Positions 1-21,193 are shown, numbered from the stretch's first letter. The stretch: 57,236 nt of DNA from an uncultured Nitrososphaerota archaeon (GCA_964636085.1 CAZWPQ010000005.1:32730-89965); one strand, 5' to 3'. Numbers and translations are program-made. The notes: generated from the sequence alone by a model not told the origin.

Positions 1-3000
1 GAGTACCAGTAGGGAGACTGTGCCCAGACATCACGAGGAATAGCGATCCAGTACACATCATTCTCCTCGTCATAGGAGGCAGTCCAAGCATTCCACTCAC
101 CATCATTGAACCTCCACCAAATAGTCACATTGTCAACACCACTCTCATCATACACAGTCACATTGATATAGATACCGCCCAGATAATTGTCATAGATCAT
201 ACCAGTATCATTACCAGTAAACGACACACTGGTTATCTGCGGAGCATCATCGTCATCATCAACAATAACCGGGCCAGGATGCACACCAGTATCAGACATC
301 AACTGATCATTAGGCCTATCCATATCCGCGTCCCACACCACAATACGATAATATATCGTCAGATTGGTCGAGTACCAGTAGGGAGACTGTGCCCAGACAT
401 CACGAGGAATAGCGATCCAGTACAAATCTCCCTCATTATTGGGTGTCCATGCATTCCATTCGCCATCATTGAATCTCCAGTAGAAGGTTACGTTGTCTAT
501 TCCACTTTCATCTGTTATCGTAGCGTTTATGTATATTGCTCCCTGATAATAATCATATATCATTCCCGTATCATTTCCAGTGTATGTTATTTGTGATATT
601 GATGGGGCGTTTGTGTCATCATCATATATTATTGGGCCCTGCATCTCCCCCGTGTCTGTGTATAGTTGATCATCTAGCCTGTCGATATCAGCGTCCCATA
701 CTACTATCCTATAGTATATGGTTATTTGATATTGCTCCCACTCTTGGGCGGATGCCCAAAGGGATCTCTCGATAATTATGTAGTAGTTGTCTCCTTCGAC
801 GTACGGGTCCCATTGATACCAGCTACCATTGTTGAACCTCCAGTAGAATGTAACGTTCCATATGCCGCTCTCATCTGTTATTGTTGCATTTATATATATG
901 TCTCCCATATAGTTATCATATACAAAGCCTGTGTCATTTCCAGTGTATGATATACTTGTGATCTGTGGCGATGTTGTGTCGTCATCGAATATTTTTCCAG
1001 CATCTCCAATATTTGATACTAGTTTTGACCTGTCCATGTCTCCACGATCGTCATCATTGTCGTAGGCCACTACATAGTAGTATATCGTGATATAGTTTGA
1101 CCCTTCCCACGCACTAGTTGTTGACCATATCTCTTTGCTTATAGATATCCAGTATACATTGCCTTCAACATTCGGGCTTAGGGAGTAGAATGTATTATTA
1201 TCAAAGCTGTAGTATATCGTGGCATTATATATGCCAGAATCATCGATCAGTGTTATGTTTATGAAGAACGGCCCAGTGTAGTTATCATATATTACTCCGG
1301 TCGTCACGACATCTTCTATTGATGGTGGGTTTGGATCGTCATCATATATTTTCCCGGCCTCTGACATATCTGTAATTGTGGATAGTGAATCATCGTGTCT
1401 ATCATCATCTGCGTCTATAGCTATGACATAATAGTATATCGTAATATAATCTCCCTTGCCCCAGTACTCGCTTGAGGACCATATACTTCTATCTATGGCT
1501 ATATAGTATACATTCCCGTCTTGTTGTGCTTCCCAGCTGTACCATGTCATGTTGTTTATGCTCCATCTTATTGTGACATTGCTTAGGCCGCTCTCGTCGA
1601 TTATTGTTACGTTTATATAGAATGGACTCGTGGCATTATCATACATGATTCCTGAAGTAACCGTATTGTATATCTGGGGTGGTTCTGTATCGTCGTCATA
1701 TATGTTGCCAGCAATATCTATTGGAGAAATCGTAGATAATTCATCGCTTGGTCTGTCGAAATCATTATCCACCGCGATTATCTGGTAATATATCGTTATG
1801 AATGTAGCACCTTCCCACACATCTGATGCTGCCCATAGGCTTTTGCTTATGGCTATCCAATATACTCCGTTCGTGTAGTTGGCCCTCCAAGAGTGCCAGG
1901 TATTGTTGTCTATGCTCCATTTTATAGTCACATTGGATAGCCCGCTTTGGTCTATTATTGTAGCATTTATATAGAATGCATCAGTATAGTTATCATATAT
2001 GTTTCCTGTGGTGGTTACTGATTGTATTGATGGTTTCGTCGTATCATCATCATAGATTTTTCCTGCCTCACTAATACTTGTTTCTGTTGATAATTGATCA
2101 TGCGCCCTGTCCTGATCAGAGTCCCATGCAACTATGTAGTAGTAGATTGTTATATATGTTCTTCCTTCCCACGCACTTGTAGATCCCCATATGCTCTTGT
2201 CTATAGCTATATAATATATATCAGTGTTTTCCACTCTTGTGGGCGTCCATTCATTCCATTCTAGATCCTCAAATCTCCAATAGAATGTTACATTATATAG
2301 CCCACTTCTATCTGTGATTGTTGCATTTATATAGAAGACCCCCGTATGGTTATCATAGATTATACCAGAGGTTACGATATTGGAAATAGTTGGTGGGTCC
2401 GTATCGTCGTCATAGATTTTGCCAGCCTCTGCGATCTGCGTCGTTCTTGTCTTGGAGTCATATATCCTATCATTATCCGCATCAGTTGCAATTATCTGGT
2501 AGTATATAGATATGTATGTCCTATTCATCCATAGATCCTCCGAGGCCCACAGGCTTTTATCTATTTCTATCCAGTAGAAATTACCTGTATTGTTTGGAGT
2601 CCATTCATACCATAACTCTTGATCAAAGCTCCACCTGAATAATACATATATAAGTCCCGAATAATCGGTTATTGTGGCGTTTATGTAATAGGGACGAGAA
2701 GTATTATCATATATAATACCGCTAGTATATGGCGTTATGGAAGGCGGATTAGGGTCATCATCAGTTATTGTTCCAGCTATGCTAGGGTTTGTCTGCATTT
2801 GGGATTGGTCATATACTCTATCGTTATCATTGTCTATGGCCCAGATATAATAGTATATTGTTATTTCATCACTATATTGCCATTCTGGTGCATTTGACCA
2901 TTCGGATCTTGCAATAATTATGTACCACGCCTTAACGCCTAGCGTTGCATCTCTTTCATCCCAGCTGGAGTTATCATATGACCAGTATATTTTAACTGAT

Positions 3001-3485
3001 GCTACACCACTAGCATCCGATAGCACTACACTTATGTTAAAGCCTTCTGTATAGTTATCATAGATATTACCAGTCGTTATTATACTAACTACTGATGGCG
3101 GGTCTGGATCATCATCATATATTTTTCCGGCGTATATGGGGCTTGTCTTCGAACCATAGTTAGATGTCATGTCGTCATTGGGCCTATCATTGTCTCCATC
3201 AGTAGCAACTATATAGTAGTATATTCTAAGTTCTGTTCTTCCATTCCATAGTTCTGTTGTCTCCCAGTTCGACTTATCTATCGTTATCTCCCATATGTCC
3301 CCACCAATATTTGTGGCATCCCAATAGTTCCAAGAACCATCCTCGAATCTCCATACAATCTCTACGGAGGCTACCCCAGATGCATCAGTTACTTGGGCCC
3401 TTATATAATACTCTGTACTATTGTCATATATGTCTCCAGCCGTTTCTATGTTGGATATGCTGGGGCCTAATTTGTCGTCATCATC
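1..3485 (-). repeat. Intragenic tandem repeat array with a 353-369 bp period (118-123 aa), at least 10 copies, continuing past the left edge
   Basis: Acidic linker codons (plus-strand gtcatcatcat / gtcgtcatc, encoding DDD on the minus strand) recur near 250, 615, 975, 1335, 1690, 2045, 2400, 2755, 3108 and 3474. A translated copy reads DDDTTSPQITSISYTGNDTGFVYDNYMGDIYINATITDESGIWNVTFYWRFNNGSWYQWDP...ITIYYRIVVWDADIDRLDDQ. Confidence 0.85.
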
Positions 3486-5576
3486 TATAAATATCGAATA
3501 TGTCACTGTATATACAATGTTTCCAGCAACATCTTGAGCGTAGGATTCCCAATAAAGATGCTCTCCTATATGCTGCTTCCACTCAGTTACACTAATAGCA
3601 TAGGTATATGTATTCCCCGTATTAGAGGTTGGATCAAGCCAACTCGTATAGTCGACCCATCCCTCGTATTTGTATCTAAATTTAACCACGCTGATCCCGC
3701 CTCCCTCGTCAAACCAATTTATGGTTAGTACTATGTCATCCGTCTTATTATCATATATCGTACCTGTAGGGCCCGCATTTTGGTACCATGGATTCGACAC
3801 ATCGAGTTTGAATGGACCCTCTTGGAGGCTATCGGCTGTATTTCCAGCCCTGTCCTCCGCACGAATGATTATATCATAGTTCCCCGTAGGCAGATTTGTT
3901 ACATTGTATGTAGTTGATGTCCCCGCATTATAGGTGTTATAATATACCCCATCTTTGTATACTATTACTAAATATCTTCTTATTCCACTCATATCGTCGC
4001 TTGAAGCCGACCATGTTACCGTAATCCAGTTTTGGCTAACCCAGACATCGGTTGTTGGATTGTAACCTGTAATCGATGGTGCTGTTGGGGGCGACGTATC
4101 TATGTTTACCCCATGTTCCCAGTATATTTCCCATACCTTGGTGCCATTTACAGAGTACCTATTTTTGAGGCCATTCCAGAATTCATATATTGTCGTTGGG
4201 TTATCATTGTCAACAACCCCCCATATATAACTGAAAGGTATACTATAGTAATCCCCAACACCGTCGCCAGCTTGGTCATCATTTACAGTATCATACAGAT
4301 CCCATAATATCCCGGCCACAGCTCCACAGATATCTGCATCATTTACCGAATAATCAGAGTCGTACTGTGTCTCGAGATTATATGTGTTTGGATAATCATC
4401 ATATATGTATGGTGAAGTCATACCGGCATACTGCTTGACTGCTGATCCGAAGAAGGCTCCAAAACCCTCAACCCATGCTGTTTGCTGATTCTTATGGGCA
4501 CTCCAGTCGAATCCCATAGATGGTGATAATACAGAGTATTGCTTTAGTAGATATTTTGCATATTCCTTGAGCACCAATGACATGTCCTCCCAATCTTTAT
4601 AATCCTCAACGCCAGAAACATAGAGTATATTCGCATTATCATCATAATACATGGACTCATATTGATCACTAAACTCTACAGTTATTGGGTTTGGAGTTAT
4701 CCCTACGGTCGCCTGCATGAATTTTACTGCCTCTTGTATGTACCAAAGCACCAATGCTGCTCCCGCTGGGTTGGGATTTGATACATAATAATTGCCATTA
4801 GCATCGGTGTCGACATTTCTAACAACTAATGTCTCCTCCAATATATACCTTACACTCTTACCACTTGACGCAGACACATGATAGTATTCTTGATCAATGT
4901 CATATTGGCCAGCTTGGCCACCCTCATCAGAGAGATATATACTTACCGCTGTGTCATCGGGCACTTCAGAGTGATCATCGTACATTCTGACATAGTAGGT
5001 GGACCCAGACCTCTGAATTACCGCATAACTGGTGTCTAGATACATCCTTAGGAAAACATCCTGGTTGCCGTATGCACCCAACCATCCATCAGTATTGTCA
5101 AAAGATATCTCAAAGAACCCCGCGCTATCCGTCCTAGCGCTCCCTAGGGGATCCTCTGTACCATCTCCGTCTATATCCCATGCCTCAACAAGTATATCCT
5201 CAAGAGGATGAAAGCCATATGCGTCTTTGACACCAACGTACCCGTATACTTTGGCCCATCCCCCTGTGGGGTTTGATACACTCCTATCTAGTGGTACAAT
5301 TTCATAGCCTAGATATATCCTATCACTCGCTCCAGCCATGACTTCAAGTTTATTATTGTTTTTAGGTTCTTTTTTCAGTATTATTTGCCCGTAAGCTATT
5401 GTTTTGCCGTTAGACTGCTCTATTTTAACCTTATGTTTTATGACCTTTATTATAGCGTCAGCCAGGTCTTCTGCCTTTTTGTCTATCGATTTCGGCTTTA
5501 TTTCTCTAAACTTTATGTCTGCTAGGCCAGCCACTATTATGACTACTAATATTGTTATATTCTTCCAATTTCCCAT
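1..5576 (-). CDS. Giant secreted/surface protein, N-terminal 1858 codons only (C-terminus lies beyond the left window edge). Order of parts: signal/anchor, prealbumin-like domain, degenerate zincin-like domain, acidic Ca-binding-type loop, FN3/Ig-like modules, then at least 10 tandem ~120-aa repeats.
   Basis: Own minus-strand translation from ATG 5576-5574 gives MGNWKNITILVVIIVAGLADIKFREIKPKS... then ..VYGYVGVKDAYGFHPLEDILVEAWDIDGDG..SARTDSAGFFEISFDNTDGW... The codon phase at the left edge (..VYWIAIPRDVWAQSPYWYS) matches the phase of the ATG. The track lists no minus-strand ORF here, as expected for a frame that never reaches a stop inside the window, and shows only short plus-strand shadow ORFs. 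The protein is colinear with the N-terminal ~900 aa of the 14771..20011 product. I did not check every codon for stops. Confidence 0.8.
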   Translation of the reverse strand, partial: MGNWKNITILVVIIVAGLADIKFREIKPKSIDKKAEDLADAIIKVIKHKVKIEQSNGKTIAYGQIILKKEPKNNNKLEVMAGASDRIYLGYEIVPLDRSVSNPTGGWAKVYGYVGVKDAYGFHPLEDILVEAWDIDGDGTEDPLGSARTDSAGFFEISFDNTDGWLGAYGNQDVFLRMYLDTSYAVIQRSGSTYYVRMYDDHSEVPDDTAVSIYLSDEGGQAGQYDIDQEYYHVSASSGKSVRYILEETLVVRNVDTDANGNYYVSNPNPAGAALVLWYIQEAVKFMQATVGITPNPITVEFSDQYESMYYDDNANILYVSGVEDYKDWEDMSLVLKEYAKYLLKQYSVLSPSMGFDWSAHKNQQTAWVEGFGAFFGSAVKQYAGMTSPYIYDDYPNTYNLETQYDSDYSVNDADICGAVAGILWDLYDTVNDDQAGDGVGDYYSIPFSYIWGVVDNDNPTTIYEFWNGLKNRYSVNGTKVWEIYWEHGVNIDTSPPTAPSITGYNPTTDVWVSQNWITVTWSASSDDMSGIRRYLVIVYKDGVYYNTYNAGTSTTYNVTNLPTGNYDIIIRAEDRAGNTADSLQEGPFKLDVSNPWYQNAGPTGTIYDNKTDDIVLTINWFDEGGGISVVKFRYKYEGWVDYTSWLDPTSNTGNTYTYAISVTEWKQHIGEHLYWESYAQDVAGNIVYTVTYSIFIDDDDKLGPSISNIETAGDIYDNSTEYYIRAQVTDASGVASVEIVWRFEDGSWNYWDATNIGGDIWEITIDKSNWETTELWNGRTELRIYYYIVATDGDNDRPNDDMTSNYGSKTSPIYAGKIYDDDPDPPSVVSIITTGNIYDNYTEGFNISVVLSDASGVASVKIYWSYDNSSWDERDATLGVKAWYIIIARSEWSNAPEWQYSDEITIYYYIWAIDNDNDRVYDQSQMQTNPSIAGTITDDDPNPPSITPYTSGIIYDNTSRPYYINATITDYSGLIYVLFRWSFDQELWYEWTPNNTGNFYWIEIDKSLWASEDLWMNRTYISIYYQIIATDADNDRIYDSKTRTTQIAEAGKIYDDDTDPPTISNIVTSGIIYDNHTGVFYINATITDRSGLYNVTFYWRFEDLEWNEWTPTRVENTDIYYIAIDKSIWGSTSAWEGRTYITIYYYIVAWDSDQDRAHDQLSTETSISEAGKIYDDDTTKPSIQSVTTTGNIYDNYTDAFYINATIIDQSGLSNVTIKWSIDNNTWHSWRANYTNGVYWIAISKSLWAASDVWEGATFITIYYQIIAVDNDFDRPSDELSTISPIDIAGNIYDDDTEPPQIYNTVTSGIMYDNATSPFYINVTIIDESGLSNVTIRWSINNMTWYSWEAQQDGNVYYIAIDRSIWSSSEYWGKGDYITIYYYVIAIDADDDRHDDSLSTITDMSEAGKIYDDDPNPPSIEDVVTTGVIYDNYTGPFFINITLIDDSGIYNATIYYSFDNNTFYSLSPNVEGNVYWISISKEIWSTTSAWEGSNYITIYYYVVAYDNDDDRGDMDRSKLVSNIGDAGKIFDDDTTSPQITSISYTGNDTGFVYDNYMGDIYINATITDESGIWNVTFYWRFNNGSWYQWDPYVEGDNYYIIIERSLWASAQEWEQYQITIYYRIVVWDADIDRLDDQLYTDTGEMQGPIIYDDDTNAPSISQITYTGNDTGMIYDYYQGAIYINATITDESGIDNVTFYWRFNDGEWNAWTPNNEGDLYWIAIPRDVWAQSPYWYSTNLTIYYRIVVWDADMDRPNDQLMSDTGVHPGPVIVDDDDDAPQITSVSFTGNDTGMIYDNYLGGIYINVTVYDESGVDNVTIWWRFNDGEWNAWTASYDEENDVYWIAIPRDVWAQSPYWY

Positions 5577-5737
5577 ATAGTTACCCTTATCCTTTATTGA
5601 CAGAAAGTTGCGACTTGGAGATAATGATGTTAAAGTACTAGTAGAAAGTTGCCTTTACCCAAGGTAAAGCTAATGGAGAAAAACGTGGAAAAATGTGAGT
5701 GAATACTAAATAATGATGTATGTTCTAATAACATAAC

Positions 5738-5757
5738 AAAAAAATTATTTAAAAAAA
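5738..5757 (-). terminator. Oligo-T tract pair (T7...T7 on the minus strand) just downstream of the 2966-aa gene stop; archaeal-type terminator candidate
   Basis: Plus-strand A7 at 5738-5744 and A7 at 5751-5757, 11-30 nt beyond the stop codon at 5768-5770. Confidence 0.45.
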
Positions 5758-5767
5758 CCAAGATCTT

Positions 5768-11700: not shown

Positions 11701-14668
11701 ATACGTATATCGTTACATTTAGCCCCCTTGAGGCATACGATGGTATGTCATATTGGCCGTCTATCATTATCTTGATAATTTTCTCACCGTTCTTTTCTAT
11801 ATATAACACAGAATCCCATATAGAGAAAGATATGCCTATTGTATTTTTGACATCTATAGATACACTAATTGCATATGACTCATATCCATCAACAATAGTC
11901 ATACCAATGTATCTAAAGTCAGCTATCTCGACCATACCATCAAACTTAAGAGCTGAAAATATACTTTCCTCACCACCTGTACTTTCTGTACTAATGACTA
12001 AATCGGAAAGCGTTATCCCATAAAACCTATGGCCAAATAGTTCTATGTCAATTGATACATCAACATATAGGGCCGAGAGGTCACCATAGACAAAACCTCT
12101 TACGAATGGTTCGAATTCATATGATAAATTGTTCAGAGTCAGCCTAATAGTGTTTACTGATGTTCCAGGCCCAATTATGGGTTCAACTATTTCTAGGTAT
12201 ACTGGAGGATCTATCGTTTCACTATTCATACTTGCATTTGCTTTTAGCGACATTATTTTCATGGGCAGCGGGATATCCTGAGTAAAGTTTACGTATATGT
12301 CTATCCTATCTGGGTACTCGGTGGCATTAATGATATCAACACAACTCCCATATAGTGCTGACTGCTGGCTGAACATGGATGATATTGAATCTATTAATGA
12401 AGCCGCAACAAGCATTCTGAAGTTATCAGTGGAAAAATTTAACCCCCCTAGATCCAGGCTTATGTTACCCGCAACCGAGACGTTTACAGTATATCCTCTC
12501 AGAGTATAGTTGAGGAATTCCAAAAGAGCACTATTGTCATATAACCTAATCTCTACATTGACTTCGCGAATATCAAGAGGCGGTATCTCCACATGGTTCC
12601 ATACTAGTAGTTCCGCAAAAGCTTCCTCAGTTTCATCCATATAAACCAATATGTCGAAATAGCCGATTTCGATGGGGACATTATACTTGTTCTTTATGGC
12701 TACAGTGGCCTCCATGGTGTACGCTCTTGTAGAACCTATTATCTCCTCACCTTTATAACTGACATTTTTGATTTCGAATAAATCTGACATATCGCTCAGT
12801 GACGATAATTGGTATATGTCGCCGCCAAGCATGTTTCCTCTTAGCCGTATTGGGACTTGAGAATAATACCTGCTAAGGAATTTTATATCGACAGAACCAA
12901 TGAATTCGATCTTGTTATACCATGTACTCGTCATAAAGTCATTGACAAAGTCATTCAAGACTGGTGTGGTTTTATCTATCCTGATCTCAACACGAGGAGA
13001 ACATTTTACAATATCTGAGATGCCATTACCAAACAGGTTTATATCGGAAATATATATGGATCCAACATAGTACCCTCTATAAATAATATCTCCATATATG
13101 TTGCTGAGGCGAATGGGCATTCTATCATAGGTTAAATTTACATGCGTAGTTATCACTATATGCCTACCATCGGGGTCAAGCGAGATATCATAATCCCCCA
13201 CGCGGAATTCACGAGCACTCATGTATGAGCCAAAGTCTCCTCCGATCGGCATAAATTGATCAAGCATCCCTGCCTGAGAGCCCTGGTCTCCTCCCATAAA
13301 GTTGTTAAAGGCGGACTTAATGTCTATATCTCTTATCCAGACACCAGCAAAGTAAATATCTATGCTTCCCGAGATATGTGAATTTAATTTTCCATAATAC
13401 AGTAGACTATAGAGGAAGCTGTCAAGATAGTCGTTATCATAGAATGTTATGTTTAAAGAGAAGTTTTCAGATTCTCCAGGGCTTACTAAAACATCACCTA
13501 CTTGGGTTACATGTAAAAATTCTGTTGTTTCAGACTCATTCTTACTCATCACTAGATCTATATTGCCCCATCCAAGTGTCCAATTGAGTGTATTATTGAT
13601 CGTTATGTCGATATAAAAATCATGACGGATTACATTCCCTATGAGTTTCTCACCGAGATATTTTGTCCTAACCCCACTTATTATGTCAGATAGTAAATTA
13701 GATACTGCCGAAAATATACTACCCGTTGTTTCTGATGTGGAGTTCCCACCGCTTAAAATGGTGGAGTATGGTTCTACGTCCCCCTCGAATTCAGCATAAT
13801 TTATCTCTATCCCAAAAATCTCAAGTGAGATTGTGCCACGAGCCTCACCATCGATTGTACCCTCCTTAAGTGCTTTTTCTAGAAAAACTTGGAGGGGCTC
13901 CCCTTTTATGAATCTAATAATTATGTCTGTTTCAAAGTTACCTTTCTGGGGGTCTAAGGTGTATGGCCCCATCTCGAAGTAAAGAACATGGCCAACATCA
14001 TTTATTATATCGAATGATGCCTTCTTTATCTTTACCTCCCCCACTTGTGCGAATTCCGATGGTACTACACCACTAACTCTTACTCTTGCTTCAGCATATT
14101 GTCCAGTTTCTCTTGTTAATGATATATTCTCCACAGAGATTCCTGGCATAAATTGCATTACTGGTGCATCTCCGGTCTGAAGAATACTCTCTAATGAAAT
14201 CGTTATTGGAAATCTCGCTATTGTAAATAAACCAAAGAATGTAAAAGGATACAGTGCCTTTATTTTCCCCTTGAATTTCTGTGTCCGTATGAACTCTTTG
14301 ATAAAATTGATGGTGGCCTCATTCTTGTATAGTTTTATCTGCATTTTGAGTATTCCAACCTGTCCTGGATCGAGTGTTATTGGGCCGATGGACCCCTTCC
14401 CACAAATCCCTCCTGTTTTTTCATCATATATTTCGAACAGTATCTTATCGACTTTTGCAGGTAACCAGAAATTATTTCTAACAAGAACTTTAATTCTGAG
14501 TACACTATATTGACTTGTTGACTCATTCTCCGCATACTCAAAACTAATTAGTTTGTAGTCTAGGCGGGCCAGAGGAACACTTAGAATAATGTTCACTCCA
14601 ATATTGGATATCGCAAACAGCAGGATTATTCCTATAATCTTTTTCTTAGTGAGTCTTATCTTACTCAT
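5768..14668 (-). CDS. Giant (2966 aa) membrane-anchored envelope protein: N-terminal TM/signal anchor, about 17-18 tandem LEA_2/WHy-like beta-sandwich modules, and a unique ~450-aa C-terminal region
   Basis: ATG at 14668-14666. The N-terminus is MSKIRLTKKKIIGIILLFAISNIGVNIILSV. The recurring module pattern is x-V-x-V-x-N-x-x-x-x-P-[IV]-x-[IV] ... Y/F-D-[IV] ... P-x-x-x-x-x-x-[IV]-x-[IV]-x-[IV/L]-Y ... F-L-x-x-L ... G-x-[IV]-x-[IV]-x-[IL]-F-G. Examples are LRIKVLVRNNFWLPAKVDKILFEIYDE...ITLDPGQVGILKMQIKLYKNEATINFIKEFI and VSIDVKNTIGISFSIWDSVLYIE...VNIKIFGIELPG. Confidence 0.9.
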   Translation of the reverse strand: MSKIRLTKKKIIGIILLFAISNIGVNIILSVPLARLDYKLISFEYAENESTSQYSVLRIKVLVRNNFWLPAKVDKILFEIYDEKTGGICGKGSIGPITLDPGQVGILKMQIKLYKNEATINFIKEFIRTQKFKGKIKALYPFTFFGLFTIARFPITISLESILQTGDAPVMQFMPGISVENISLTRETGQYAEARVRVSGVVPSEFAQVGEVKIKKASFDIINDVGHVLYFEMGPYTLDPQKGNFETDIIIRFIKGEPLQVFLEKALKEGTIDGEARGTISLEIFGIEINYAEFEGDVEPYSTILSGGNSTSETTGSIFSAVSNLLSDIISGVRTKYLGEKLIGNVIRHDFYIDITINNTLNWTLGWGNIDLVMSKNESETTEFLHVTQVGDVLVSPGESENFSLNITFYDNDYLDSFLYSLLYYGKLNSHISGSIDIYFAGVWIRDIDIKSAFNNFMGGDQGSQAGMLDQFMPIGGDFGSYMSAREFRVGDYDISLDPDGRHIVITTHVNLTYDRMPIRLSNIYGDIIYRGYYVGSIYISDINLFGNGISDIVKCSPRVEIRIDKTTPVLNDFVNDFMTSTWYNKIEFIGSVDIKFLSRYYSQVPIRLRGNMLGGDIYQLSSLSDMSDLFEIKNVSYKGEEIIGSTRAYTMEATVAIKNKYNVPIEIGYFDILVYMDETEEAFAELLVWNHVEIPPLDIREVNVEIRLYDNSALLEFLNYTLRGYTVNVSVAGNISLDLGGLNFSTDNFRMLVAASLIDSISSMFSQQSALYGSCVDIINATEYPDRIDIYVNFTQDIPLPMKIMSLKANASMNSETIDPPVYLEIVEPIIGPGTSVNTIRLTLNNLSYEFEPFVRGFVYGDLSALYVDVSIDIELFGHRFYGITLSDLVISTESTGGEESIFSALKFDGMVEIADFRYIGMTIVDGYESYAISVSIDVKNTIGISFSIWDSVLYIEKNGEKIIKIMIDGQYDIPSYASRGLNVTIYVFKGKQELGEFLEEILVDYVFNATINGTVNIKIFGIELPGYKFFSNIVMDLADQSGFTEYYDIGGLFNASIRSISVVNENENITEVNVILDAGLIRFPVKVYELSTNFSFINRPDPAISLHLNNIIDLEPSSSAEIDLDFIIYKSDMEYIREFLRRALESRLYPIDIDGYVFMEIFGVNLSLPFHFENFTATATSSQILTTATLPDVSISIADFSYMGVEYINGNKTHRFKLSLDFENIFDIGAEIGPFDIEITRDNVTVVSIYMNHFTIEPYSNTQINMSIWFYSNDYTYYFLRDLIEEELINCSFHGYGNITIFGIEILDINMTYPIVMYIKNAISGGSSSDIPLGQLEICNISIDVLNENTEYAELVIDVNTSNILKLPAKVRYMNISIYKNDNITLEGELLQDIDLSEDNVSLEFYVRLYKNNATRDLIKELVMSKVTGVSIIGELSFYFLEWNFTLSINMSNVAYSSDGTTIGDVGIPIGIDRILRIQRIEQKDERQLWVYFVFNNIVNTTIKFGEFDFAIYFYGERVVYGGMDEFYVAPPLGNTTGVFKIIFEDNDATKQFLENILINKTFEGEIRGNASFSIFGLEIMKIPFAEYVIIDLSTQITGDQSAMSNILPSVISAEVVSSKSYDDYLEINVTLTIDNAPVSISIYDLDIVFSNEYGDIGEILIDQAELSYNKYSTFNVTLRLYDKYPNDALATLIRDYVERGIVDVRINGTTSLVIFGFDIRNIPLDLRISGGMSDIQGENGGVGSIVLPMDQLFMLEEIRQITFDGDSYNLSVNVTARSPLDTLIRLGNADITIYSEGEEALHVQFGGPYSLYSYNDTIINMLLTIYDTKGAHNLLDNVFSAGHVNVSIVGYVDLYLLGAQVERLFLNLSFYQEFDTVGSISQAADSVMSNILQYSVDKIEVIGENGKYANVSVLVNIDDIPIYIKIYDMDLLIENKEGKIARLIVNETAELMPSQQSQMEIRIIVYRGTTALETFINEYIKESSTTINVNGEIEAQLFGGSSRYLSFNIPVDIVNMTYGLEDENGSLIPLDFGSMIQYKDMEYIRGYYDFEEGCNAYELKILSEFINNLNVSLALYNLSFTLTKGNETIIVGTVSNISLSKGTNTSIGVNLVIYDKVETAAFLQDLLNNYIISINVDVHVDLISIFGLNITNISLSEVFGWNISSQLEGSEVQSSVLSLFDMFIGQICVLSEDANTARLQFNITVKNARLPVYVYDMVADLMYQDARVASVVVPYIELSVHNDTSFTVNLTIYKNNKTALQGFLTDLLVKKNVVMDIWGNTTINLFGSEHLNLYVSFKYNDTVYAVDDYYNSLMSGEIDTSSFLDYIISYSAENVSWAVVSENDTHVVFRLNETLWSALNLKIYFMRTWLFMDPLNASTVFALQRLVGDLEVSANDTGEISIDIVFFKNEYLQQFLDNVLHNWEISVWADTIINLEIFGVNITGLEALSAKFAYIITLDTIQGALDSMVEEQVNSVNAEVVYLEPIGYGNWFDKNDELYGGVENSIAYAEKIWERDPAYINVWDYNWTLIKYVQQTGGFGFNVSLINFRARMVFTGIYENGSIASGNEEDFIGEIYIDNLTLVEDSNNTFFAYVRLWRVNRLRPRMPESALKDWLWSMVKLHQYNFSILNVTFSLEMWGCYIENITIDVLNFTGIYDPSSLSDVIKFNGLKSWSVGWNLNEGVYADVTFEIEVPMSPEWLTYYYMLITWDDDPIFFEDTDTCPDDPPASGGFSDNGTHKYSEVEEFKALDPASNPLAHSSNNYWIAPIMVDAPTSLPDYAVWFGTGGSYTLSARLDIEWTDGHHDYFGNIDVDQKYNDEAFTAQGKAEQENANGDAYYLLNWEGIEDGDMWVMVMFSYEVEFLMFWWVIYYYTPMFYITSGDYNPNVINGNITLSTTVYWELHDYYHVHRFIVMRDTNGTIVVKPHPNANYTVNTSVSGLYFYDSCDGAIDTSEPDYSGNYHR
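6870..14570 (-). repeat. Diverged intragenic array of ~140-aa (~420 bp) LEA_2-like modules, repeated at protein level only
   Basis: Module-end markers recur about every 135-150 aa: ISLEIFGIEINY, IDIYFAGVWI, ISLDLGGLNF, VSIDIELFGHRF, VNIKIFGIELPG, VFMEIFGVNLSL, NITIFGIEILD, ASFSIFGLEIMK, TSLVIFGFDIRN, VDLYLLGAQVE, IEAQLFGGSS, VDLISIFGLNIT, TTINLFGSEHL, INLEIFGVNITG. Confidence 0.7.
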
Positions 14669-14749
14669 GAGACATGCCTAATACACCCTATCATCAAAAC
14701 TCCAAAAATTTCACCAACGGACAAATAACGATAAATCAAATACCCAAAC

Positions 14750-14756
14750 AAAAAAA
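14750..14756 (-). terminator. T7 tract (minus strand) downstream of the 1746-aa gene stop
   Basis: Plus-strand A7 at 14750-14756, about 15 nt beyond the stop codon at 14771-14773. The same ~100-bp spacer must also hold the promoter of the 2966-aa gene. Confidence 0.4.
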
Positions 14757-14770
14757 CATTTATAAAGAAC

Positions 14771-17700
14771 CTACACATCCAATTCCTCGTCAATGGTTTC
14801 CTCAGACGCCTCTTCCACGATATCTTCTATCGTAGAGGACGACTTAAGTTTTTTACCCAATATCCTAAGCGATCCAAGAATGGATACCAGTAACAGAATT
14901 ATAAGCGGCATCATCCAGCTTCTAGCCACCTTTCTGGAGGCCTCAACATCCACCTCCAACGTTTGCTCCGTAGCGATATAGTAACTATTCTCACGTATCC
15001 GAACCCTCAATACATGCTTGCCGCCCGAATCTGGATACCAAGAGACTTCAAGATGCCCAATATATGTGGTATTGAGTAGCAACGAGTCATCCACATAAAC
15101 CTCTATAGGCACATTCACTACAGCATCTTCATCATCATCCATTATATCGATGGATATGATTACCTCCTCTCCAACTTTCGGCTTCTCCGATAATTCAATT
15201 TTTATTGAAACTTCCTCTCTATATACGACTAATCCTATATTTCTGGTGGTCTTTCCATACTCTATCGAACCAATAGCATTTATTTTAACCGTGTAATTCC
15301 CAGGAGGTATATCTATAGTGAATGAAATCAATACATATCCGGACTCATTAGTGTAACCATTATAAGCCACGATGGTTTCATTTGGGGTTGGTATTAGGAC
15401 TATTACCGAAACAAAACTCAGTGGGTCGCCATCCATAGTCAATACTCTAGCGATAAAGCTAACATTATCACCATACTCGACAGTTAAAACTGCCGCATCC
15501 ACCTCTAGCTCAAGCCCAAGAGTCTCTACTTTTAATGTAATAATAATATCTTCAGTCAATTCATAGTATCTACTATTTAATAGAACACGTATTGTATATA
15601 CACCTGGTAGTAAATCGAATGGAGGAGGCGGATAATTTATAGCCAATGTTGACGCAAGCGTTGTATTCATTATCAAGTTATCATCCAAATATACCTGAAT
15701 AAACCCAAGTGGGAGTACCCCGGAGCCATCATTATCCCTTACAGATAATATTAATGTATCAGACTCATTATATGTTACCTCCCATATCCATTCATTTCCT
15801 ATATTGGTTGACACCACCAGTTCCTCCCTGATTAAATACAGCCTCGTTAGTTTATATACACTACCCTCATACCAAATACTTGTGGCATTAACATACATAT
15901 TCAGTATCTGCACGGGACAAAGATCACTGAAGTTAAGACTGATTTCGGCATAGCCATTGGTAATGGGGATCATTAATTCCAAATATGGGGAACCATTCTC
16001 TAATAGTACCCGTATTGATACATTACCTATTGTTAGTGGTTCGCCATCATCATCATAGACCATCATTCTGATATCTAAAATGTCGCCCCACTCTATGAAG
16101 CTTGAGTTGACCGCAACTTCCAAGACGCCGATATCATCTCCAGCCACAATGAGTTCTGTACTAGTATTTGTCCCTATAAATCTTTCATCACCCGAAACAT
16201 ATATGTGCATTAGATATGTGCCAGGCACTAGATATGTTGGATACTCTATCCCCCCATAACTAGCGATTTTAAGTTCAAATACTCCATTAAAATCAGTAGT
16301 GTTAGATCCAAGAAATTCCTCAGAATCATTGACAACTAAGTATATGGAAACATTTACATTCTGTGCAGCATTCCCAAATGCATCCTGGATTAAGAGCCGA
16401 ATAATGCCGCCATCCGTGTATGTAAGCGTGATATTTTCGTTAATAATAACCAAAAGCTGTGTCCTCATTATCAAAACAACACTACTATTTTTTGAGGAAT
16501 ATAAATGCTCAAGTTCATCTCCCGAAAATATGGCCTCTAGGGTGTATGTGCCCGCATTAATGTTGACTAACCAGTAAAGAACCGCCCGGCCATTAGCGTC
16601 TGTGTAGTTTTCACCTATCTTTATTCTGGAGACATTTCCATCAGCATCATCCACTACGAAAAATACAACAAGCACCCCCTCGACTGGTTCTCCTGTACTA
16701 TCGTATACATATGCTGCCACGTTTATTCTCTCCCCATAGGACACATTAGAGGGAGAAGAAATATATGTCGCTGTATCCATCCAAACATGCATCCATAGCG
16801 TATAGTTTGATGCTGCAAAGTTCTCAGACCCCCCGAAGCTTATTACTAGGTCATATATCCCCCGGGATATATTAATCAAATACGGGGAAATGATAATGTA
16901 TGCAATAGCATTAGTTTCATTGTAACTATATGTTGTAGTGTTTAGAACACCCACTATTGTGCCCCCATACTTAACATATACATATATCGTCAGGTTATCT
17001 AGGGGCACTACCCCCCCATCGTTTCTCTTAATCTCGAAGCTTAGGTTGTAAGAGGAGGTATAGTTTACTTGAATCTCATCTAGGTCTATGATTATTTCAG
17101 TATTCTCTAGTACGACTTCTAAGTCGTCTAGGCTTACCTCCCTATACGTTTTGTCTCCAGGTTCGTCCGTATCATTATCCCATACCCTTATGCTTAAGGA
17201 CTCGCCCAGCAATATTGGACCAAACATTTCCGTTACTAGTCTATACGTGTAATTACTTTGATACTCTACACTCGCCAGAATAGTAAAGTTCTCTGAACCC
17301 AAAATTACCTGCACAAAACCATCCACCCCGCTTTTGTCATAAACTATAATCACCAAGTATATCCGTTCGTCCGTTTCTATCCTACCATCTCCACCTAACG
17401 GATCCTCGTATACCTCAATATTGAGAATTACTGGGGGGTCATTATCATCATCCATAACTTCACCTATTTCTCTCTTGTCTGAAAACTTGAGAGCTCTGTC
17501 ACCAATGCGATCAGTATCATTGTCCCACGCATATATTGTTATGTATACCTTACATCTTACATAATTCTTCCAGATGGATGGAGGTATCACAACATAAAAT
17601 ATGCTCCCATTCCTATAGATACTATCGTTGGTGAACAAAAACTCTGTATTTTCAAACCAGACAATAAATGTAACATTATATATGCCGCTTGGGTCATCCA

Positions 17701-19981
17701 TCTTTACCCATATAGTATAGTTATCCCACGTATTATCAAATACTAACAATGGTGAGCTTGGATATGTAACCACAGGAGGAGACGAATCATCATCGACAAG
17801 TATCACTTTATACATATTCGAATTTGCCCTATTCCCAGCAAAGTCTATACATTTAGACTCCCAATACAGGGTTATCCTAGTCTCATTACCCCAAACAGAC
17901 GGATCCTTCCAAGTAGCCGAATCTATAACAATATAGTAGAACCTCGTCCCGTCGTAACTGGCTTGAATCCAATCGCTCCATTGGCCCGTATCACCGAACT
18001 TATAGCGGATATATACATAATATACACCGCTTGGAGAATCGAACCAATCTATCTTGAGTACTATAGAGCCCGTAGAATTGTCGAATATCGTTGTACCGTC
18101 ATAGGGATATATCCGATAGAATGCAGGAAGCATGACGTCCAGCATGAATTTCCCTAGAATTGTTGCGTTTTCATTACCAGCGCGATCAAAAGATGTGATA
18201 TATAAGTACCAAACACCCGAGCCCAAACTTATATTCGCCTCATTCTGGGTGGTATTATAGATGAATATTTTCCTTGTGACATTGTTCTTATCCTTGACAT
18301 ATATTTTGTATCCCGCAAGGAGACTTTTCTGATCTTGGTCGTAGCATTGCGACCACTTAACCCATACCCAACTCTGATTCTTCCACAAGTTTATGTCTGG
18401 CAGATAATCAAGAACACTAGGCCTGGTAGGTGGGGCTTCATCTATATTTACCCCGTTCTCCCAACATAGCTCCCATACATCCGTAGAATTCACAGAATAT
18501 TCTTGTATGAATCCATCAACAAAGTCAAATATATCCCATGGCTTATAGTTCGTTATTACACTCCATATGTTACTAAAACTATAATCCAGATGATCTCCAA
18601 TACCATCACCATCCTGATCGTCGTCATTCCCATCTACTATGTCCCATAGGATCCCTGCCACGGCTCTTATTACATCGCTATCATTCTTAAACCCATCTTC
18701 ATCATATACGGGTTCGAGATCTATACGCTGAAAGCTTCCATAATATAGGTAATAGTTATTCCAGTAATCCTTAACCGTCTCAGCGAAAAATAAAGACCAG
18801 CCATTGACCCACGCTGTCGTTGTATTCTGATGTAACTCAAATGCATAATCTACATCAAAATTGGGTGGGCCTAGATCCGCATATGTATCCAGCAAGAATT
18901 GTCCATAAGCCATTAATAGTTCCGTGTAGTTAATAGTGTCCACATTTGGAACATATATCCTTCCATCATCGGGATTATAAAATGCATGATCGGCATCGGT
19001 GGGGTAGTATATAACAGCCGTAGGCGGGTCTACGGACGCCGTATTAAGCATAAAATCGTGAGCAAGCTTTATGACAACACATATATCCGCTAGAGGTCCT
19101 GAGAGAATGTAGGTAATTATTTTGTTATCATCATTTCTATATCTCCACTGATTCTCATCCAGTGTTCTGTCATTCGCATAAATGTCTGTATCTATAGGCG
19201 TACCGTTGACCCATATTGTTACGGCATCCCCGCTGGGAACATTGGGGACATCATCCCACATCCTATATTGATACACATATCCACTGGTATTCTCAATAAT
19301 ACAGACGCCCGAGATATTAGTGAAAAAATGGATGAAAACATCTTGCTTACCGTACCCACCCCACCAACCATCGGTGTTATTAAACTCTAACTCAAATATA
19401 CCCAACTGATTTGTTAATGTCCATCCAAGCCTATCCCAATCGGATGTCGGTCCCCCCATATCCGAGGGATTGATATATGGGAAGTCATAGGGTTGACTAC
19501 CATCAATGTCATAAGCGTTTAGAAAAAGCCCGCCTACAGGCCGATATTTATCACCAACAGCATACCTATCGTAGAATGTTACTCTTCCATACACTTTGCC
19601 ATTACTGGAAAGGGGATCACTTATTTGAGAGCCATTAAAATCCTGAATATAATAGTAAAGCCAGCTGCATCTCACAGCACTATTGCCATCATGTTCTTTA
19701 ATTTTTAGCACAATCCTACTATTCGAGTCTCCATTCGACCCATTTTTGATTCGGGGTCCATGTAAACTCCCGACGGCACTCAGTATAGTTTGGTATTCTT
19801 CATTCTTGCCGATTGGGGATTGAAAAATATTGATCTTTGAGGATCCATCGTTATCTACATTGTTTCTATTATCTAGTTTCCAGAGAAAATGAAGTGTTCC
19901 TATGAGTAACAATATTATAGTTATTACACCAAATACTCGTGTTTTTTTACCTATACTATACCTATTATTCCCAGTAGACAT
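14771..19981 (-). CDS. Giant surface protein (about 1736 aa from ATG 19981, or 1746 aa from TTG 20011), paralog of the gene at 1..5576. It has the same N-terminal architecture, two DDD-linker modules, many prealbumin/Ig-like repeats, and a C-terminal TM anchor with an acidic tail.
   Basis: N-terminus is MSTGNNRYSIGKKTRVFGVITIILLLIGTLHFLW. Shared blocks with gene 1 include VYGRVTFYD..LFLNAYDIDG..LGIFELEFNNTDGWWGGYGKQDVF, AGILWDIVDGNDDDQDGDGIGDH and CWENGVNIDEAPPTRPS. Repeats carry YTDANGRAVLYW, TTDFNGVFELKI and YTNESGYVLISF turns. The C-terminus is SWMMPLIILLLVSILGSLRILGKKLKSS followed by EDIVEEASEETIDEELDV. The track start at 20011 is TTG, and the TATA-like box position favours ATG 19981. Confidence 0.9.
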   Translation of the reverse strand: MSTGNNRYSIGKKTRVFGVITIILLLIGTLHFLWKLDNRNNVDNDGSSKINIFQSPIGKNEEYQTILSAVGSLHGPRIKNGSNGDSNSRIVLKIKEHDGNSAVRCSWLYYYIQDFNGSQISDPLSSNGKVYGRVTFYDRYAVGDKYRPVGGLFLNAYDIDGSQPYDFPYINPSDMGGPTSDWDRLGWTLTNQLGIFELEFNNTDGWWGGYGKQDVFIHFFTNISGVCIIENTSGYVYQYRMWDDVPNVPSGDAVTIWVNGTPIDTDIYANDRTLDENQWRYRNDDNKIITYILSGPLADICVVIKLAHDFMLNTASVDPPTAVIYYPTDADHAFYNPDDGRIYVPNVDTINYTELLMAYGQFLLDTYADLGPPNFDVDYAFELHQNTTTAWVNGWSLFFAETVKDYWNNYYLYYGSFQRIDLEPVYDEDGFKNDSDVIRAVAGILWDIVDGNDDDQDGDGIGDHLDYSFSNIWSVITNYKPWDIFDFVDGFIQEYSVNSTDVWELCWENGVNIDEAPPTRPSVLDYLPDINLWKNQSWVWVKWSQCYDQDQKSLLAGYKIYVKDKNNVTRKIFIYNTTQNEANISLGSGVWYLYITSFDRAGNENATILGKFMLDVMLPAFYRIYPYDGTTIFDNSTGSIVLKIDWFDSPSGVYYVYIRYKFGDTGQWSDWIQASYDGTRFYYIVIDSATWKDPSVWGNETRITLYWESKCIDFAGNRANSNMYKVILVDDDSSPPVVTYPSSPLLVFDNTWDNYTIWVKMDDPSGIYNVTFIVWFENTEFLFTNDSIYRNGSIFYVVIPPSIWKNYVRCKVYITIYAWDNDTDRIGDRALKFSDKREIGEVMDDDNDPPVILNIEVYEDPLGGDGRIETDERIYLVIIVYDKSGVDGFVQVILGSENFTILASVEYQSNYTYRLVTEMFGPILLGESLSIRVWDNDTDEPGDKTYREVSLDDLEVVLENTEIIIDLDEIQVNYTSSYNLSFEIKRNDGGVVPLDNLTIYVYVKYGGTIVGVLNTTTYSYNETNAIAYIIISPYLINISRGIYDLVISFGGSENFAASNYTLWMHVWMDTATYISSPSNVSYGERINVAAYVYDSTGEPVEGVLVVFFVVDDADGNVSRIKIGENYTDANGRAVLYWLVNINAGTYTLEAIFSGDELEHLYSSKNSSVVLIMRTQLLVIINENITLTYTDGGIIRLLIQDAFGNAAQNVNVSIYLVVNDSEEFLGSNTTDFNGVFELKIASYGGIEYPTYLVPGTYLMHIYVSGDERFIGTNTSTELIVAGDDIGVLEVAVNSSFIEWGDILDIRMMVYDDDGEPLTIGNVSIRVLLENGSPYLELMIPITNGYAEISLNFSDLCPVQILNMYVNATSIWYEGSVYKLTRLYLIREELVVSTNIGNEWIWEVTYNESDTLILSVRDNDGSGVLPLGFIQVYLDDNLIMNTTLASTLAINYPPPPFDLLPGVYTIRVLLNSRYYELTEDIIITLKVETLGLELEVDAAVLTVEYGDNVSFIARVLTMDGDPLSFVSVIVLIPTPNETIVAYNGYTNESGYVLISFTIDIPPGNYTVKINAIGSIEYGKTTRNIGLVVYREEVSIKIELSEKPKVGEEVIISIDIMDDDEDAVVNVPIEVYVDDSLLLNTTYIGHLEVSWYPDSGGKHVLRVRIRENSYYIATEQTLEVDVEASRKVARSWMMPLIILLLVSILGSLRILGKKLKSSSTIEDIVEEASEETIDEELDV

Positions 19982-20013
19982 GGATAGCACTGCAATGTTT
20001 ATAATTCGCAAAA

Positions 20014-20021
20014 ATTATAAA
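20014..20021 (-). promoter_or_regulatory. TATA-like box (TTTATAAT on the minus strand) for the 1746-aa gene
   Basis: Plus-strand attataaa at 20014-20021 lies 33-40 nt upstream of ATG 19981 but only 3-10 nt from the TTG at 20011. Confidence 0.45.
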
Positions 20022-20190
20022 GGTCATTCAAAACATTTCAACACACTAATACTGAATACGATAACTAAACTAGGCTATTATAATTATATGATATAAATAT
20101 TTAAATAGATAGCAAAGAATATTAAACATTCAACATCAGACCTACTCCATAAATTCAAAATATAACTTCCTTCTTGAGTCAGGGTATATA

Positions 20191-20964: not shown

Positions 20965-21183
20965 GTCACACACCCTTTGCTTTAGAACTGTTTGATAGTT
21001 TATTGAAGTTGGGAACAATAAGTGTAGGAGAGTCCTATGAAATATTGAAAAAATCTACACTATTTAAAGGTTATCTTTATGCAATCACAGAACATACTGA
21101 TTATATTAATCTCTGCGATGTTAGTTATAGATGCAACGCTTTTTCCTAGATCTCTGTGTGCTACTTGTCTTAATTTTTAAAAA

Positions 21184-21193
21184 ATATATTTAA
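21184..21193 (+). promoter_or_regulatory. TATA-like box upstream of the 21216 ORF, in the divergent intergenic region
   Basis: atatatttaa sits 23-32 nt upstream of ATG 21216, within the AT-rich run ttaatttttaaaaaatatatttaa. Confidence 0.4.

Follow-up and report, generated by a model that had tools for sequence, protein, structure and literature searches.

Gene content and layout of the locus

The DNA analysed here is a stretch of 57,236 nucleotides (nt) from an uncultured archaeon labelled Nitrososphaerota (GCA_964636085.1, CAZWPQ010000005.1:32730-89965), and this whole stretch is referred to below as the window. Positions 1-20011 carry three giant, intact open reading frames (ORFs), which are adjacent and all on the minus strand, and which are called g1, g2 and g3 here. 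Genes g1 and g3 are paralogs that encode a protease-like head without its catalytic motif, followed by repeat modules and a membrane anchor, and g2 encodes a long array of LEA-2-like domains. A gene of the g1/g3 family followed by a g2-type gene recurs as a pair in related archaea. In the following, related proteins carry P-numbers (e.g. P0005), and contigs or loci compared with the window carry L-numbers (e.g. L001).

Gene g1 covers 1..5576 on the minus strand, is in frame from base 3 (3..5576), and leaves the window at the left end after 1858 open codons with zero stops. Gene g2 (5768..14668, minus strand) encodes 2966 amino acids (aa) from an ATG start. Gene g3 (14771..20011, minus strand) encodes 1746 aa from TTG 20011 or 1736 aa from ATG 19981; the ATG is the more likely start and gives a typical signal-like N-terminus. 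On the plus strand under the three genes, no ORF of 150 aa or longer is present. An initial annotation, made from the sequence alone, had described three consecutive minus-strand giants with spacers of about 190 and 100 bp that contain oligo-T, and the layout is as described there. The g2-g1 spacer (5577..5767, minus strand) measures 191 nt and contains T7 tracts at 5751-5757 and 5738-5744, just past the g2 stop codon. The g3-g2 spacer (14669..14770, minus strand) measures 102 nt, with CTTTATAAAT at 14758-14767 after the g3 stop, followed by a T7 tract at 14750-14756. Oligo-T tracts are archaeal terminator signals, a role that they may also play in these spacers.

The region upstream of g3 (20012..20190, minus strand) is AT-rich and contains, as judged from its sequence only, TATA-like elements, including CTTTATAA about 40 nt before ATG 19981 (at about 20014-20021, minus strand). 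The same element recurs right after the g3 stop (14758-14767), about 85 nt upstream of the g2 ATG. It is possible that both copies are archaeal TATA boxes, in which case the second copy would give g2 its own promoter.

Extending the contig leftward, as the initial annotation had proposed, recovered the C-terminus of g1. Contig L001 is 100% identical to window 45..6930, prolongs the window leftward by about 3.6 kb and completes g1, and the gene that follows g1 on L001 encodes ribosomal protein L13e. The full-length protein, P0005 (2699 aa), starts with the g1 sequence and was found in a profile search of 1.84 billion representative proteins. Only window bases 1-44 disagree with L001 (6887-6930), the rest being 100% identical. 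Since adjoining modules of the repeat array in g1 are about 78% identical in DNA, the left end of the window is probably a repeat-induced assembly break inside this array. Stops or frameshifts in the g1 frame, which had been named as the mark of a pseudogene, are absent from the 1858 codons.

The paralogous giants g1 and g3

The proposed paralogy of g1 and g3 is borne out by pairwise alignment: in BLASTP, g1 99-832 aligns with g3 129-865 at 31% identity over 777 columns (E 3e-80). The motif blocks KEYAK/MAYGQ, NDDQAGDGVGD/DDDQDGDGIGD, YWEHGVNID/CWENGVNID and WFD...RYK are all present in the two genes, and each motif listed in the initial annotation lies where expected. In the core, g3 and P0026 share 77% identity; the genes that precede the LEA-2 giants of L003 and L004 match g3 at 31-33% identity along about 1660 aa.

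The protein encoded by g1 starts with a signal-peptide-like N-terminus (MGNWKNITILVVIIVAGLA, 5520..5576, minus strand), which was read from the sequence and in which the hydrophobic stretch lies below the 19-residue threshold for a transmembrane (TM) segment. The head that follows was modelled with AlphaFold2 (AF2) using a 5-sequence alignment (g1 aa 85-500; predicted local distance difference test score (pLDDT) 69.5, predicted template-modelling score 0.79). In Foldseek, the first part of the model (about aa 85-200; 4977..5324, minus strand) matches transthyretin chains with E about 1e-4 to 1e-3, so that the transthyretin/prealbumin-like beta-sandwich suggested earlier is now supported at the fold level. 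The second part (about aa 265-495; 4092..4784, minus strand) shows a thermolysin-like, two-lobed fold. It matches the M4 vibriolysin MCP-02 (3nqx, 3nqz and 3nqy; E 7e-6 to 2.6e-4, target-normalised template-modelling score 0.54-0.58) and also the M1 aminopeptidase 3cia. In g3, alignment with g1 and the family places the head at 18434..19669 (minus strand), with the transthyretin-like domain at 19307-19669 and the thermolysin-like domain at 18434-19129.

The earlier description of this second domain as zincin-like holds for the fold but not for the active site. The HExxH motif is replaced in 13 of the 13 aligned members, and neither zinc-binding His is present in any of them; the domain is therefore called a pseudo-zincin. 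In the two clades of the family, called types A and B below, the motif at this position is KEYA[KR] in type A and MAYGQ, MAYSQ, YAYGQ, MAFAQ or MAYAQ in type B. Motif searches located KEYAK of g1 at 4554-4568 and MAYGQ of g3 at 18899-18913 (both minus strand). The following helix contains Glu in type A (AW[VI]EG[FL]; WVEGFG in g1, 4458-4475) and Asn or Val in type B (AWV[NV]GW; WVNGWS in g3, 18794-18811, where the Glu is lost), the equivalence of this residue to a zinc ligand being taken from the order of the helices. No peptidase family was matched by the pseudo-zincin giants in Pfam or NCBIfam at E <= 0.01. The first approximately 500 residues of g1 gave nothing in Pfam, NCBIfam and PDB sequence searches, with only sub-threshold noise in NCBIfam and nothing at E <= 1 in a phmmer search of the g1 head against PDB sequences. 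The head is most likely a catalytically dead protease fold that has been retained for binding or scaffolding and not for catalysis, as the sequences and the model suggest.

Downstream of the two helices lies a near-invariant block, AVAGILWDLYD..NDDQDGDGIGD, which contains a DxDxDG-type acidic loop. This loop reads NDDQAGDGVGD in g1 (4251-4283), with the middle Asp changed to Ala, and DDDQDGDGIGD in g3 (18593-18625). Of the 11 sequences in alignment A3, 6 have the DQDGDG form, as does g3; the five remaining ones, including g1 (DQAGDG), have one substitution each. Given its sequence, the loop probably binds Ca2+. It is followed by a WE..WEHGVNID block (YWEHGVNID in g1, 4098-4124; CWENGVNID in g3, 18440-18466) and then by an FN3/Ig-like module of a very common type. 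In g1 this module spans aa 496-592 (3801..4091, minus strand) after a PPT(A/R)PS linker and gives weak Pfam matches to Big_13 and DUF4625; in g3 it lies at 18140-18433, at the start of a module stretch of 17135..18433.

After the head, both proteins continue with a module named after its WFD...RYKY sequence, which is considered ancestral, and with related modules joined by Asp-rich linkers, here called DDD modules. The WFD module of g1 (aa 593-697; 3486..3800, minus strand) was detected by a module hidden Markov model (HMM) with an independent E-value (i-E) of 4.6e-8 and is 33% identical to its counterpart in g3 (17795-18139; i-E 2.1e-13). The array of g1 (3..3485, minus strand) consists of DDD modules of about 118-121 aa each, with i-E of 1e-45 to 1e-55. 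Within the window, g1 contains one WFD module and ten DDD modules, starting at aa 698, 821, 939, 1056, 1176, 1294, 1412, 1531, 1652 and 1773, of which the tenth is cut at the window end. Full-length g1 contains 11 DDD modules and one degenerate copy, which agrees with the at least ten copies counted in the initial annotation. The modules are 34-74% identical to each other; each has about 118 aa, an Asp-rich linker followed by Pro (DDDxxPP) and an internal A-x-D-x-D-x-D-R motif. In g3, two copies had been placed at about 17132-17800. These coordinates match, but only one copy is solid (aa 740-851; 17459-17794, i-E 1.8e-16), the other being degenerate (aa 854-959; 17135-17452, i-E 0.008).

The remainder of g3 is a membrane-proximal stalk of Ig-like and carboxypeptidase-regulatory-like repeats (14942..17134, minus strand), which is colinear with P0005 aa 1790-2686. 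Its Pfam matches lie above the gathering thresholds (Big_1 48.4 against 34.9 bits, CarboxypepD_reg 38.5 against 32.3 and Big_3_5 38.3 against 35.5). The C-terminal part (14774..14929, minus strand) holds a TM anchor identified by hydropathy (14852-14929), a basic cluster and an acidic tail ending in ...DEELDV, so that the Ig-type repeats and TM anchor described earlier for g3 are both found. Full-length g1 likewise continues with Ig-like repeats (Big_3_5 38.0 bits, cut-off 35.5) and closes with a TM helix (aa 2642-2663) followed by an acidic tail, and its C-terminal part aligns with g3 aa 638-1744 at 25-28% identity (E 4e-51 and 4e-16). The divergence of the two genes after about 900 aa, as stated in the initial annotation, was an effect of the truncation of g1 in the window: full-length g1 is colinear with g3 to the tail. 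The two genes thus share one architecture from end to end, and the only large difference between them is the DDD copy number, 11 in g1 and 1-2 in g3.

This copy number also varies across the family, with 11 in g1, 10 in its L018 ortholog, 3 in P0017, 1 in P0053 and 1-2 in type B, and long orthologs of 2590-2700 aa with 10-11 modules are present in other samples. Modules 1-5 of g1 are each closest to the same-numbered module of P0010, which comes from another metagenome-assembled genome (MAG), with 57-62% identity on the diagonal and 38-55% off it. These modules are positional orthologs, and most of the array therefore predates the split between g1 and P0010. The last three or four modules of g1 (57-74% identical) look younger. 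Tandem Repeats Finder detected no DNA-level tandem array in the module region, and a recent amplification was rejected on this ground.

The DDD modules resemble cadherin repeats in their size of about 118 aa, their Asp-rich linkers with Pro, and the A-x-D-x-D-x-D-R motif, which recalls Ca2+ motifs. They differ in that no cadherin profile or structure was matched: module profile A6 gave no PDB match at E <= 10, and no cadherin family was among its Pfam matches at E <= 10. An assignment as cadherin was rejected, as it had neither Pfam nor PDB support, and the module has no detectable relative in Pfam or PDB.

Hydropathy gives one C-terminal TM segment each for g1 and g3 and one N-terminal TM segment for g2. 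In each of the eight full-length pseudo-zincin giants, the C-terminus consists of a TM helix, then a basic cluster, then an acidic tail of 20-35 aa. The end of this tail is E-E-L-x-[LVI] in six of the eight, g1 ending in ...LEDLE and P0150 in ...EEFGEL, and none of the eight C-termini contains the PGF motif of archaeosortase (PGF-CTERM) substrates. The tail is kept across both clades despite an overall identity of about 30-35%, which suggests an intracellular binding partner or a sorting signal. The density of N-x-S/T sequons per 1000 aa is 23 in g1, 30 in g2 and 30 in g3 (overall range among the giants 23-31), compared with 2.9 in 12 pooled cytoplasmic proteins of the window. The assignment of the giants to the cell envelope in the initial annotation is supported by these densities, by the signal or anchor segments, by the C-terminal TM helices and by the Ig-like domains above Pfam cut-offs.

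The LEA-2 giant, the host lineage and the gene pair

The description of g2 as a LEA_2-like giant between the two paralogs was confirmed by Pfam, where the whole protein scores above the cut-offs of DUF3712 (PF12505; 55.9 bits, cut-off 24.1) and LEA_2 (PF03168; 35.5 bits, cut-off 25.4), single repeats scoring below the threshold individually. A hydropathy scan shows a single TM or signal anchor at aa 10-34 (14567..14641, minus strand), and the same lone N-terminal TM segment is present in three of three homologs. Gene g2 has no lipobox Cys and no C-terminal or other TM segment. An iterated repeat HMM detected 17 LEA-2-like repeats at aa 56-2444 (7337..14503, minus strand), of which the copy at aa 505-598 is degenerate; a very weak and degenerate 18th copy is possible. 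The repeats have a core of about 93 aa and a period of about 140-150 aa. The final E-values of the iteration are partly circular, and a first pass from a single seed already gave 11 repeats. The repeats are mutually 13-21% identical, and BLASTP self-comparison of g2 gave no internal matches at E 1e-3. A phmmer search with the complete g2 protein gave no PDB sequence match at E <= 1, and the repeat profile aligns over the whole domain (positions 24-115) with 3BUT, an archaeal LEA-2 structure, weakly, at E 0.27.

A protein identical to g2 is present in the protein collection as P0152. Its homologs P0153-P0155 are 36-43% identical to it, and the arrays contain 17, 17 and 20 copies. The C-terminal region of g2 (aa 2445-2966; 5771..7336, minus strand) ends in a conserved domain of about 300 aa. 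A 4-way alignment shows this domain (5771-6700, minus strand) to be the best-conserved part of the LEA-2 giants, with many invariant columns. Its motifs include ITWDDDPIFFEDTD, ITWDDDPIFF, DIEWTD..HDY.GN, MFWWVIYYYTP and EPD..GNY, and searches of Pfam, PDB and NCBIfam gave no homolog.

A type II membrane topology is typical of LEA-2 proteins, and those of archaea usually have about 311 aa, two domains and a lipoprotein-type signal, whereas fungal DUF3712 proteins can contain 15 gapless domains (bioRxiv 10.1101/2021.03.12.435176). Within this superfamily (fungal DUF3712, yeast Tag1, archaeal Af_0446/3BUT), g2 shares the lone N-terminal TM segment and the gapless repeats, and is, by its sequence features, an archaeal counterpart of the long DUF3712/Tag1-type architecture. 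It differs from typical archaeal LEA-2 proteins in the 17-20 domains of its type, the missing lipobox Cys, the unique C-terminal domain of about 300 aa and the pairing with a pseudo-zincin giant.

The closest named relative of g1 comes from a 'Candidatus Njordarchaeota' MAG, and the RsmB protein encoded in the window is 54.5% identical to the RsmB of this MAG. In addition, the 284-aa protein encoded at 54750-55604 (minus strand) is similar to small GTPases, namely the Arf family (E 6.5e-17) and Gtr1/RagA. An Arf-family small GTPase is a eukaryotic-signature protein and is consistent with an Asgard origin of the window. Judged by these sequence relationships, the host is a Njordarchaeia (Asgard) archaeon.

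Among 185,579 species-representative genomes, the head domain was found in just three MAGs, which carry the labels Njordarchaeota B13_G17, 'Nitrososphaerota' SRP141552_co1_93 and 'Crenarchaeota' JZ-1.bin_83. MAG JZ-1.bin_83 (GCA_024720975.1) has been proposed as type material for Panguiarchaeum symposium, a genome-reduced and putatively symbiotic member of the class Njordarchaeia (bioRxiv 10.1101/2025.02.13.637844). The first profile search against the 1.84 billion representatives gave 31171 matches and was dominated by the FN3/Ig section (profile positions 415-640), a ubiquitous module that was the best match for almost all of the top 150 of these. Only matches spanning profile positions 7-667 in one stretch were true family members. 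A word-indexed search with the core-only profile A3 found no relatives outside the family, and a scan of Joint Genome Institute metagenomes added seven more loci, none of them outside it. The pseudo-zincin giants were thus found only in Njordarchaeia in the sequence collections searched.

A neighbour-joining tree of the head domain gives the two clades. Type A contains g1, P0010, P0001, P0017 and P0053, and type B contains g3, P0026, P0120, P0150 and the genes of L003 and L004. Identity between the clades is 28-40% in the head domain tree and was also measured at 33-37% in the core, and both types are present together in two MAGs. Because these old clades coexist in other genomes, g1 and g3 are ancient paralogs that did not arise by local duplication. 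Of the earlier proposal that the locus evolves by duplication and module amplification, amplification stands, with 11, 10, 3 and 1-2 modules in different members, and local duplication does not.

Wherever it is visible, in the window and at six other loci, the gene right after a short pseudo-zincin member (1686-1919 aa) is a g2 homolog. In the window, the type B giant g3 is separated from the LEA-2 giant by 102 nt. A type B giant lies upstream with a 10-nt gap and GGTGA before the start in both L003 (Panguiarchaeum) and L004/L005, with a 25-nt gap in L012 (P0150) and with a 4-nt overlap in L021. A type A giant lies upstream in L013 (P0053; 100-nt gap, with an NTP_transferase gene upstream as in the window) and in L014 (P0017; 69-nt gap). 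In relatives with junctions between a 4-nt overlap and a 25-nt gap (L003, L004/L005, L012 and L021), co-transcription of the pair is likely from this spacing. The constant position of the LEA-2 giant after a short member suggests that the two proteins are made together and are partners.

The three-gene block was found only in the organism of the window and on no other contig, giant repeat genes usually being located at contig ends. The long type A orthologs of g1 in L015, L017 and L018 adjoin RsmB-TatD, the same neighbours as those to the right of the block in the window. The block thus looks like a juxtaposition of a conserved g3-g2 pair and a long type A gene of the TatD neighbourhood. Instead of the dedicated three-gene locus of the initial annotation, the synteny comparison shows a two-gene unit, a pseudo-zincin giant followed by a LEA-2 giant.

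A neighbourhood of NrdD, dCTP deaminase, RsmB, TatD and a giant recurs in the window (20191-23953), L002, L013 and L015-L018. The first giant after TatD is of type A in L002, L015, L017 and L018, and of type B in L016 and in the window, where it follows an NTP_transferase gene. By these arrangements, this locus seems to be a rearrangement hot spot for the giants.

Further genes were observed in the rest of the window. A fourth giant ORF (40310-46390, minus strand; 2026 aa), unrelated to g1-g3, has a sequon density of 31 per 1000 aa, CarboxypepD_reg/SpaA-like repeats and a C-terminal region that contains several hydrophobic segments and has a multi-pass look. After it, in the same orientation, comes a Metallophos/purple-acid-phosphatase-like gene (46414-47556). 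At 24581-27318 (minus strand) lie two adjoining TldD/PmbA-family metallopeptidase genes, of which the ORFs (24581-26023 and 25939-27318) overlap by 85 nt; in the downstream ORF, the GVT start possibly extends too far. Three minus-strand ORFs, 37899-39179 (426 aa), 47546-48412 (288 aa) and 53102-54724 (540 aa), have no Pfam match at E <= 0.001, and no RNA genes were detected in the window by Rfam and ARAGORN.

A candidate surface system and its alternatives

The block is interpreted as a non-catalytic surface coat or adhesion system of membrane-anchored, probably N-glycosylated giants, to which a probability of roughly 0.7 is given on the basis of the sequences and models. In this system, g1 and g3 would have type I membrane topology, with a signal peptide at the start, one TM helix near the C-terminus and an acidic tail in the cytoplasm, and a stalk of beta-sandwich domains would put the N-terminal head at the far end. 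The head would consist of the transthyretin-like domain, the thermolysin-like domain without zinc-binding and catalytic residues, the Ca2+-type acidic loop and the FN3-like module. Because the catalytic motif is lost, the most likely role of this head is binding and not catalysis. The DDD copy number would tune the reach of the head, the 11 modules of g1 against 1-2 in g3 corresponding to about 40-50 nm more at about 4 nm per domain, and the acidic linkers between the modules could bind Ca2+ together with the DxDxDG loop. Gene g2 is predicted to have the opposite topology, with an N-terminal TM segment, a rod of 17 gapless LEA-2 domains that would be tens of nm long and the conserved C-terminal domain at its tip. 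This type II rod with its tip domain would work alongside the head protein.

Several known systems are comparable in part. ADAM22, ADAM23 and ADAM11 are catalytically dead, membrane-anchored (type I) receptors that are metalloprotease-like, and they share with g1 and g3 a pseudo-zincin on a type I membrane protein from which HExxH is lost. With the M4/gluzincin fold, the two-lobed head and an 'active-site' helix followed by a 'Glu' helix are shared. The giants differ from both in having no sequence-level peptidase match, in being archaeal, in carrying the domain at the tip of a 1700-2700-aa stalk and in lacking a disintegrin/EGF context. Bacterial adhesins of the RTX/Bap type have Ca2+-stiffened arrays of Ig-like extenders and distal ligand-binding domains. 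The likeness here is an anchor, amplified beta-sandwich extenders with acidic linkers, a distal head and a variable copy number (1, 3, 10, 11), whereas g1 and g3 have a C-terminal TM segment in a single archaeal membrane, no type I secretion or outer-membrane plug and no RTX repeats. In Sulfolobales, slaA and slaB are two adjacent, co-oriented genes for large glycosylated S-layer proteins, of which at least one has a C-terminal TM segment. The pair described here is also a set of adjacent, co-oriented genes for large envelope proteins, but no sequence similarity was detected, and both partners would be self-anchored with opposite topologies.

A number of observations weigh against the interpretation as a surface system of partner proteins. 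The sequon counts of g1 and g2 are no higher than their Asn/Ser/Thr-rich composition predicts, and an excess over expectation, of about 3-fold, is found only in g3 and the unrelated giant at 40310-46390. The confidence of the head model is moderate (pLDDT 69.5, 5-sequence alignment), and the AF2 model of the C-terminal 522 aa of g2, made from a 4-sequence alignment, is unusable at pLDDT 33. Both spacers (102 and 191 nt) contain T7 tracts, so that each of the three genes may be transcribed on its own. There are also long type A genes without a LEA-2 giant downstream, namely g1, which is followed by L13e, and the L018 gene (10 modules), which is followed by an aminotransferase-like gene. Conversely, L006 (6079-16281) contains a solitary LEA-2 giant of 3400 aa with 20 repeats (P0153) and without a pseudo-zincin partner. 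This gene is flanked by ribosomal aS21 and GATase/SIS genes, and L006 comes from sample ERZ27248328, the same as the window-identical contig. The partnership is therefore not obligatory.

Among the alternatives, it is unlikely, though worth considering, that the LEA-2 giant is a lipid-handling device in which a membrane-anchored chain of 17-20 groove-bearing domains binds lipids or other hydrophobic molecules or conducts them over the gap to a vesicle or partner cell, with the pseudo-zincin giants as tethers that set the distance. A role of LEA-2 domains in lipid binding or lipid transfer has been proposed from the hydrophobic groove of archaeal 3BUT, and type II topology with gapless multi-LEA-2 arrays has been described for fungal DUF3712 proteins and Tag1 (bioRxiv 10.1101/2021.03.12.435176). 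Gene g2 is alike in these respects, with DUF3712 as its best Pfam match, and Panguiarchaeum, putatively a symbiont with a reduced genome, has kept the pair. However, lipid binding and transfer by LEA-2 domains is itself a prediction rather than a demonstration, and the groove is absent from plant LEA-2 structures determined by nuclear magnetic resonance (bioRxiv 10.1101/2021.03.12.435176). The g2 repeat profile matches 3BUT at E 0.27 only, and in g2 both the groove and its continuity between domains are hypothetical.

The three genes could also encode functionally independent large envelope proteins that are neighbours here by chance, and this is rather improbable. It would fit the occurrence of the trio in one organism only, the L018 ortholog and the L006 giant without their partners, and the oligo-T after each gene. 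Against it, the order, strand and tight junction of the pseudo-zincin and LEA-2 giants are kept in the window and six loci, although orthologs are only 31-43% identical, and the pair occupies no fewer than three distinct genomic settings (Rhomboid/DUF2070, NTP_transferase and TatD).

There is very little to recommend the reading of g1 and/or g3 as active surface proteases or hydrolases with a non-canonical active site. The thermolysin-like fold would allow it, and type A retains Glu in the motif (KEYAK) as well as the Glu helix after it (WVEGFG), next to an invariant His (H361 in g1) and several invariant acidic residues nearby. But both zinc-binding His residues are replaced in all members and no peptidase profile matches, and in type B the catalytic Glu and the presumed third-ligand Glu are missing as well, while the rest of the domain is equally well conserved. 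Finally, that g1 is a pseudogene or an assembly artefact of the repeat array, as the window end inside the array and the 44 discordant bases might suggest, is hardly credible given 1858 codons without stop or frameshift, an unbroken 2699-aa ORF with the expected C-terminal anchor on an independent contig, and the 2590-2700-aa orthologs with 10-11 modules in other samples.

Giant, repeat-rich, anchored surface proteins with amplified extenders are already known as a general kind. New are the lineage-restricted pseudo-zincin head family, which has no curated annotation, the extender module without a detectable relative, the archaeal LEA-2 giant of 17-20 domains, and the conserved pairing across Njordarchaeia, including a putative symbiont. 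The papers retrieved on Njordarchaeales, on Asgard surface proteins and on LEA-2 in archaea contain no mention of these genes. The g1 array would be a clear case of old module amplification altering the reach of a surface protein, and also of repeat arrays breaking metagenome assemblies.

Cultured Asgard (Loki) cells have no ordered S-layer but display unidentified 'complex surface proteins', which have been proposed for cell-cell contacts relevant to eukaryogenesis (PMC9834061). The locus provides named, testable candidates for such surface proteins in the class Njordarchaeia. The reduced genome that has been proposed as type of Panguiarchaeum symposium still contains the pair, about 14 kb of coding sequence, which argues for the importance of the pair, possibly in partner attachment. 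The eukaryotic LEA-2 relatives Tag1, Vac7 and TMEM106B are predicted lipid handlers. As a speculation with the odds well against it, the pair, which even the putatively obligate symbiont Panguiarchaeum has kept, could be a cell-to-cell contact apparatus of Njordarchaeia, in which the LEA-2 rod would form a long-range bridge for lipids or hydrophobic molecules resembling the Tag1/DUF3712 type and the acidic tail would couple to the Asgard cytoskeleton or trafficking. If this were true, the contact apparatus would give a molecular handle on how an Asgard lineage holds a partner and exchanges material with it.

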